A program made the translations under genes and the position numbers. The notes beneath the pieces were generated by a model. That model had not been told where the DNA came from. It saw nothing but the letters and a program-made list of their open reading frames with translations, and did not search any database. From the NCBI RefSeq assembly GCF_003019035.1, contig NZ_CP027447.1: DNA of 64,000 bases; one strand, written 5' to 3'. Shown in pieces: positions 47,864 to 48,315 of this stretch; the stretch's first letter is position 1; each line of letters opens with the position of its first letter. The stretch comes from Escherichia coli. Lineage in GTDB: Bacteria; Pseudomonadota; Gammaproteobacteria; Enterobacterales; Enterobacteriaceae.

Positions 47864-47959
47864 GAACGTCTGCCCCGCTTGTTGCGGGTATAGCTCTCTA
47901 CTACACGACTTCTTTCATCGCAGCCTGGTAGATTCGAACAATTCACACAGGAGGCAACA

Positions 47960-48010
47960 ATGAGCTACAAAATAGAATTTCTGCGTTTATTATCGGTTCA
48001 AGTAAAATAA
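47960..48010 (+). CDS. 16-codon small ORF with strong SD upstream of ydbA (possible leader peptide)
   Basis: AGGAGG then 5 nt then ATG; MSYKIEFLRLLSVQVK; in AT-rich 452-bp gap. Confidence 0.3.
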   Translation: MSYKIEFLRLLSVQVK

Positions 48011-48315
48011 TAAATATTGATATTTCGAATATGTGTGAATTTACGGAAATGGGTGGTGAAAGCAACCTGTCATCCATTTTACTGTTCGTGTAAGGTTTGT
48101 TAGAAGAAATAATTTAATGTAACAAGTGACCTGATTAATAAAATAAAACATTCATCTTGGTTATATATTGAAGTTATTTGATGATGAATTGAATTGTCAT
48201 GAATTGCTAAATAAAGCTTCTTAAATAATATATAATCATGACCACTCTTCGTTTATGACGTTTCTGTTACACCCATTTTACTTTTTAAACTGTCTCTGAT
48301 TGAGAGGGATTTCTC

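Follow-up and report, generated by a model that had tools for sequence, protein, structure and literature searches.

Leader-peptide attenuators and regulatory upstream open reading frames (uORFs) of the trpL, pheL, tnaC, mgtL and speFL types are found in Enterobacteria, and silencing by H-NS has been reported at the promoters of several Escherichia coli autotransporter adhesin genes. Silencing of low-GC DNA by H-NS is described in the work that PMC5811629 cites on this point (Navarre et al., 2006; Lang et al., 2007); the same article reports altered transcription of the K-12 ydbA gene in an rpoZ mutant and gives no H-NS site at ydbA. A further mode of control is the UpaE-type switch, an invertible promoter upstream of an autotransporter (PMC6083910).

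Goldstone et al. (PMC4951805) called the paa locus, inserted between ydbH/ynbE/ydbL and ynbC/ynbD, a region of genomic heterogeneity, and phylogroups B2 and E have been reported to be without paa (Leimbach et al., PMC5422975). In K-12 MG1655, the ydbL stop is separated from the ydbA start by 19,185 bp holding feaR, feaB, tynA, paaZ, paaA-K, paaX, paaY and ynbG. The last of these (b4674) is a 21-codon open reading frame (ORF) in the AT-rich paaY-ydbA spacer, the annotation of which rests on published K-12 experiments, namely the 2008 work to which PMC5821084 refers. A TraDIS study classed ynbG as "potentially essential" for want of insertions (PMC5821084); we suggest that the insertion gap could instead reflect shielding of AT-rich DNA by nucleoid proteins.

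Here we analyse the same chromosomal site, with the same flanking core genes but without the fea-tynA-paa block, in a 64,000-nucleotide stretch of E. coli DNA (hereafter, the window). The features of the site are collected in Table 1. The reading that we hold with good confidence is that the 452-bp spacer between ydbL and ydbA is an ordinary lineage-specific intergenic region of a phylogroup-F-type strain lacking feaRB-tynA-paa, and that the 16-codon ORF within it is most likely a chance occurrence.

Table 1. Features in and around the ydbL-ydbA spacer, in window coordinates.
Feature	Position	Strand	Basis and remarks
ydbH-ynbE-ydbL operon	44711..47863	+	Core genes left of the variable site; ORFs, Pfam, RefSeq annotation
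ydbH	44711..47350	+	ORF
ynbE	47347..47532	+	ORF; Pfam Lipoprotein_19
ydbL	47540..47863	+	ORF; Pfam DUF1318; stop TAA 47861-47863
ydbL-ydbA spacer, phylogroup-F-type haplotype	47864..48315	.	452 bp; sequence; feature-free in the annotation of all carriers
GC stem-loop CCCGC-TTGTT-GCGGG	47874..47888	+	Just past the ydbL stop; fold -9.9 kcal/mol, z = -1.1, not significant
AGGAGG and 16-codon ORF MSYKIEFLRLLSVQVK	47949..48010	+	SD 47949-47954, ATG 47960, TAA 48008-48010
AT-rich ydbA upstream region	48011..48315	+	Composition; homology to 2013C-4282-type ydbA upstream DNA
Segment resembling the ydbL 3' end	48027..48052	+	Compared with 47822-47851; repeat search and local alignment
Best sigma-70-like ydbA promoter candidate	48204..48236	+	Hexamer scan of our own with 9 of 12 positions matching
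ydbA ribosome-binding site GAGAGGGA and start codon	48302..48318	+	Five-way alignment
ydbA (BigA-family autotransporter)	48316..54278	+	ORFs, ATG at 48316; Pfam BigA_N, BigA_beta, Autotransporter beta-domain

The window carries ldhA on the minus strand, followed by ydbH, ynbE, ydbL, the 452-bp gap and a large ORF pair beginning at the ydbA start codon. Both the left flank (ydbH-ynbE-ydbL) and the right flank (ydbA-pdxI-ydbD) keep their K-12 order and orientation, and the RefSeq annotation of two genomes nearly identical to the window, TCM3e1 (100%) and IAI39 (99.8%), gives the same succession ydbH-ynbE-ydbL-autotransporter-pdxI-ydbD. The initial annotation of this DNA had ydbL followed directly by ydbA across the spacer, and the positions of the ydbL stop and the ydbA ATG bear this out. 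It had also placed a feaRB-tynA-paa cluster of about 18 kb at this place in K-12, a figure close to the actual interval, and had declared the cluster absent here. Alignment with K-12 agrees: adjacency differs, K-12 carrying ~19.2 kb between the two genes, and blastx and tblastx searches of the 452-bp spacer returned no feaR, feaB, tynA or paa gene or fragment and no relic of neighbouring genes (feaR, paaY, ynbA, pdxI and others). The paa-less site is an instance of an already known presence/absence polymorphism and nothing new; the absence of the block affects which aromatic amines a strain can use and makes a useful phylogroup marker, not a discovery.

Homology to K-12 runs at 98.0% up to window position 47851, 12 nt before the ydbL stop, is lost over the spacer and the initial 4.8 kb of ydbA, and is back, at 94.7%, at 53163; no K-12 match falls between 47851 and 51666 of the window. 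When the spacer was aligned directly to the two K-12 intergenic regions, ydbL-feaR and paaY-ydbA, real homology began only at the ydbA ribosome-binding site. Because K-12 homology is absent across the spacer and 4.8 kb of ydbA alike, the difference between window and K-12 exceeds the missing block: the window carries a distinct ydbA allele with its own upstream DNA.

The distribution of junction types was determined over 5,426 complete E. coli genomes. The K-12-type ydbL-feaR junction is present in 4,158 (76.6%) and missing in 1,268 (23%). CFT073, O157:H7-like and 2013C-4282-like strains also have ydbL joined to ydbA, each through a different spacer; the CFT073/Nissle (B2) junction accounts for up to 1,036 genomes, the O157:H7/O55:H7 junction for 374, the 2013C-4282 junction for 18 and the window's own junction, the F type, for 46 (41 intact and 5 IS-disrupted), these counts overlapping slightly since some genomes with internal deletions, such as H204, keep both edges of the block. 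All 46 carriers of the F-type spacer are relatives of IAI39, SMS-3-5 and CE10, a phylogroup-F-type lineage, and none has a feature annotated within it. The 41 intact spacers comprise two variants, 99.8-100% and about 96.3% identical. Insertion sequences were seen at two places: three genomes (e.g. SCU-172) carry an IS1 at the final codon of the small ORF (~48003), with loss of ydbA, pdxI and most of ydbD, and two, CE10 and N32, carry an IS3-family element at 48063-48069, 50 bp downstream of the ORF.

The CFT073 spacer is the left flank of K-12, as far as 64 bp beyond the ydbL stop, joined with a 1-bp overlap to the K-12 right flank from 14 bp beyond the paaY stop, so that K-12 and B2 differ here by one clean 18.8-kb indel. 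The F-type spacer is unlike the B2, O157 and 2013C-4282 spacers in sequence and, unlike that of B2, is not a simple indel of K-12 flanks. Unrelated sequence forms of the ydbL-ydbA interval in E. coli thus number at least five, and each is tied to a divergent ydbA allele, a diversity of interest for the evolution or regulation of this autotransporter. In H204 (NZ_CM142691.1, strain UID2309220027, 1398265-1399508), ydbL and ydbA lie within 1.2 kb with fragments of feaR and paaY between them; the interior of the fea-paa block was lost there in an independent event that kept both edges.

We surveyed outgroups with a YdbL scan using one genome per species, which gave 58 loci that were annotated by tblastn. 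The site downstream of ydbL is variable across the Enterobacteriaceae. The fea-tynA-paa genes come directly after ydbL in Leclercia, Silvania and a Klebsiella-like MAG; some Citrobacter have feaR-feaB-tynA alone after ydbL and then ynbA, while most Citrobacter pass straight from ydbL to ynbA; and pdxI is next after ydbL in E. albertii and C. amalonaticus. The ydbL-feaR gap is only 4-7 bp in the outgroup genera carrying feaR at this place, as against 171 bp in K-12. In E. whittamii (10322-11020 of its locus), ydbL is followed by a 36%-GC spacer, a relic of the ydbA signal peptide (MHREKLLSACVAMALSSQTWAAD...) and then pdxI, the relic consisting of the signal peptide and about 20 codons before a stop; the E. 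albertii locus has no trace of ydbA between ydbL and pdxI. This relic implies that the ydbL-ydbA adjacency predates E. coli: ydbA was already in place before the divergence of E. coli, and was later deleted in E. whittamii.

These arrangements bear on the origin of the F-type spacer, which might be a deletion scar: the F lineage would once have held feaRB-tynA-paa here and lost the block, the 5' 160 bp being left over or patched in. That fea-tynA(-paa) lies immediately after ydbL in Leclercia, Silvania, the Klebsiella-like MAG and some Citrobacter indicates an old linkage, yet the adjacency in E. whittamii, B2, O157-type and 2013C-type genomes fits equally well with ydbL-ydbA as the older Escherichia state. 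Independent deletions within the block are known (H204; PMC4951805), but the F-type spacer has neither a relic of feaR, paaY or a neighbouring gene by blastx and tblastx nor any similarity to the K-12 flanks of the block. An earlier rearrangement is suggested by the segment at 48027-48052, which resembles the last 30 nt of ydbL (GAATATGTG...ACGGAAA.TGG) and may be what remains of an earlier ydbL end; its significance is only marginal, an alignment score of 23 (shuffles, 16.5 +/- 2.2) being reached in 18 of 1000 shuffles. The ydbL-end-like block TGAATTTACGGA is conserved in the 2013C-4282 spacer too. On balance we regard a deletion scar as possible but doubtful.

Divergence of ydbL grows towards the variable site. 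The window's ydbL is 93% identical to the K-12 allele; over the final 57 nt it resembles Citrobacter and E. albertii more than K-12. The O157/O55:H7 ydbL allele (O157-like strain 143, 8812-9135) has only ~72% protein identity to K-12, a distance similar to that from E. albertii, indicating deep allelic divergence within E. coli.

The AT-richness that the initial annotation had ascribed to the spacer is confirmed by windowed GC over the 64 kb, and is strongest in the ydbA-proximal two thirds. GC content is 33.6% for the whole spacer, 42.9% for its 5' part (47864-48010) and 29.2% for its 3' part (48011-48315); the ten lowest-GC 300-bp windows of the 64 kb all start inside 47931-48021, with a minimum of 27.7% against a mean of 50.2%. 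The 5' ~150 bp (43% GC) would form the untranslated tail of the ydbL transcript. The stem-loop just past the ydbL stop makes a poor intrinsic terminator because no U-tract follows the stem, and a terminator scan of 47500-48700 found no intrinsic terminator. Folding revealed no RNA structure beyond that of shuffled sequences, either for the whole spacer (z = 0.09) or for four sub-regions (z = -1.1 to 0.4). Rfam returned nothing in the spacer at E <= 1 and, at gathering score, only three families in the whole window, all elsewhere: McaS (30393-30488, minus strand), FnrS (33866-33983, plus strand) and MicC (38779-38899, plus strand), known sRNA genes that are full length and unrelated to the spacer. 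An origin of the spacer from a mobile element was also considered and rejected, there being no match in plasmid or phage collections.

From about position 48010 onwards, the spacer shows ~65-74% identity to the 2013C-4282-type spacer upstream of a related ydbA allele. The blocks conserved between the two are TGAATTTACGGA, TTGTTAGA, GATTGCTAAATAAA, AATCATGAC and TCTGTTAC, together with the ribosome-binding site and start; at the ydbA ribosome-binding site the window becomes homologous again to every other E. coli ydbA allele, blastn alignments to K-12 and CFT073 starting at 48303. This pattern of conserved blocks is what would be expected of a regulatory region evolving together with its gene. 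Since the 3' ~300 bp (29% GC) are homologous to the upstream DNA of a related ydbA allele, with which they would travel, they most likely constitute the ydbA promoter and regulatory region. From the hexamer matches we infer a candidate promoter with the -10 element TATAAT at 48231-48236 and either TTGCTA or TAAATA as the -35 element; it overlaps GATTGCTAAATAAA, which is conserved in the 2013C-4282 spacer. A consensus scan at standard threshold gave no plus-strand promoter, the candidate at 48204-48236 falling below that threshold.

The composition of 48011-48315 suggests that this part is probably coated by an H-NS-type protein, which would keep ydbA off under laboratory conditions, as before other surface-adhesin genes. 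The likeness to xenogeneic silencing of low-GC DNA lies in the ~300 bp of 27-29% GC immediately before a large and highly polymorphic adhesin gene, and is one of analogy. A scan for the published H-NS high-affinity motif TCGATAAATT was uninformative, with no good match in the spacer and two 2-mismatch matches (47934 and 48038) at a density no better than background. A UpaE-type invertible promoter switch was tried as well and rejected for want of adequate inverted repeats, the longest measuring 18 nt (72%) and 15 nt (87%); the surrounding genes include no recombinase.

The 16-codon ORF is present exactly as the initial annotation had described it, with a perfect AGGAGG in the layout AGGAGG-CAACA-ATG, a five-nucleotide spacing proper for a ribosome-binding site. 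The arrangement AGGAGG-N4-9-ATG occurs twice in the window against 1.81 +/- 1.29 expected, and at least two occurrences were obtained in 55 of 100 shuffles. AGGAGG itself is depleted, with 9 copies on both strands, and the only other AGGAGG-N4-9-ATG is the genuine start of a Usp-family gene; were the region transcribed, the ORF would thus have a good signal for translation. Read-through transcription into it is possible, as no intrinsic terminator follows ydbL, and the ORF could then be translated at some level, though not as a conserved leader or small-protein gene.

Conservation of the ORF is confined to close relatives. It occurs in only the 46 F-type genomes of the 5,426, with zero variation, so that selection cannot be read from it. 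The ORF and the 100 bp upstream of it do not differ at all (100% identity) between the IAI39-like and SMS-3-5-like sublineages; the rest of the spacer differs by ~4%. We rejected this invariance as a sign of selection, divergence between ydbH and ydbA being patchy, with 0-1 differences in many 150-bp bins. At the aligned positions of the 2013C-4282 spacer, ACA stands in place of the ATG and AGGGGCAG in place of AGGAGG. A tblastn search with the ORF gave no match in the remaining E. coli spacer types or in the 58 ydbL loci from other species, and the ydbA upstream regions of B2, O157, K-12 and E. whittamii contain no counterpart.

These comparisons do not support the proposal of the initial annotation, in which the ORF might encode a leader peptide or a small protein that controls ydbA expression. 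A functional uORF whose translation controls ydbA would be in keeping with the perfect AGGAGG 5 nt from the ATG, with a weakly structured and accessible SD region (-5.1 kcal/mol) and with an ORF sequence that is the same in all 41 intact spacers. Yet the spacer of the closest ydbA allele, though homologous, has neither the start codon nor the SD, the annotation's own check of conservation finds nothing beyond the 46 close relatives, and by that check its idea fails. Natural strains, moreover, tolerate IS1 and IS3 insertions in or beside the ORF. The geometry is no more favourable: 305 nt separate the end of the ORF from ydbA, the best ydbA promoter-like site, a consensus match only, lies ~220 nt downstream of the ORF, and folding against shuffles and the terminator scan found no attenuator-like hairpin or terminator in the gap that could couple the two. 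The peptide MSYKIEFLRLLSVQVK, read from its sequence, shows neither a run of regulatory codons nor a known arrest motif. Like the trpL, pheL, tnaC, mgtL and speFL types, the ORF is short, has a strong SD and lies upstream of a gene; unlike them, it has no conserved peptide, regulatory codons, alternative hairpins or terminator, is not near the regulated start and is not conserved with the downstream gene. We consider a leader-peptide function very improbable.

The ORF might otherwise be translated as a lineage-specific last cistron, or 3'-UTR ORF, of the ydbH-ynbE-ydbL mRNA, yielding a young micro-protein or representing non-functional pervasive translation. The lack of a convincing terminator between the ydbL stop and the ORF would permit this, as would the strong SD and ATG in a window where AGGAGG is depleted and its sole other full match belongs to a real gene. 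The product, however, would be 16 non-hydrophobic residues, unlike known small membrane proteins or type I toxins, and the ORF is conserved nowhere outside the 46 closely related genomes, which offer no variation from which selection could be read. We hold this to be unlikely, and the more specific idea of a de novo, F-specific micro-protein or uORF, recently arisen from the tail of the ydbHL transcript and influencing ydbA or the YdbH-YnbE-YdbL lipid-transport operon, to be very unlikely indeed.

A chance ORF, its non-functionality being inferred from the comparisons above, is most likely the better description. In this it may be set beside ynbG of K-12, likewise a very short and lineage-restricted ORF in an analogous AT-rich spacer upstream of ydbA. 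It differs from ynbG in strand, ynbG lying on the opposite one, and in being known from sequence alone, whereas ynbG has the experimental basis to which PMC5821084 refers. A ynbG homolog in the window was considered and rejected, as the two show no similarity (best local match to the spacer, 9 nt). At the CFT073 position homologous to ynbG (K-12 locus 25166-25231), GCG replaces the ATG; that ynbG is not conserved in CFT073 indicates that AT-rich spacers readily yield lineage-specific short ORFs. A strong SD-plus-ATG ORF in AT-rich intergenic DNA needs conservation or expression evidence before it is labelled a leader peptide. The value of the present check is negative, and the finding in itself matters little.

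In the window, ydbA is split into two overlapping ORFs (48316..51162 and 51102..54278) because one G has been lost from the run at 51030-51035, which is G6 here and G7 in IAI39, CE10, TCM3e1 and all 14 complete genomes with this allele. The G6 run reflects either a frameshift peculiar to this strain, possibly slipped-strand variation, or an error in sequencing the homopolymer; unless it is an error, ydbA is broken and its regulation is moot in this strain. Near the 5' end of the gene, at 48650-48953, lies a 21-bp tandem array of 14.5 copies encoding PDDGGNT-like repeats, with an 84-bp super-period. Its copy number differs among near-identical strains, the array of the window being 84 bp longer than that of IAI39 and 21 bp shorter than that of TCM3e1.
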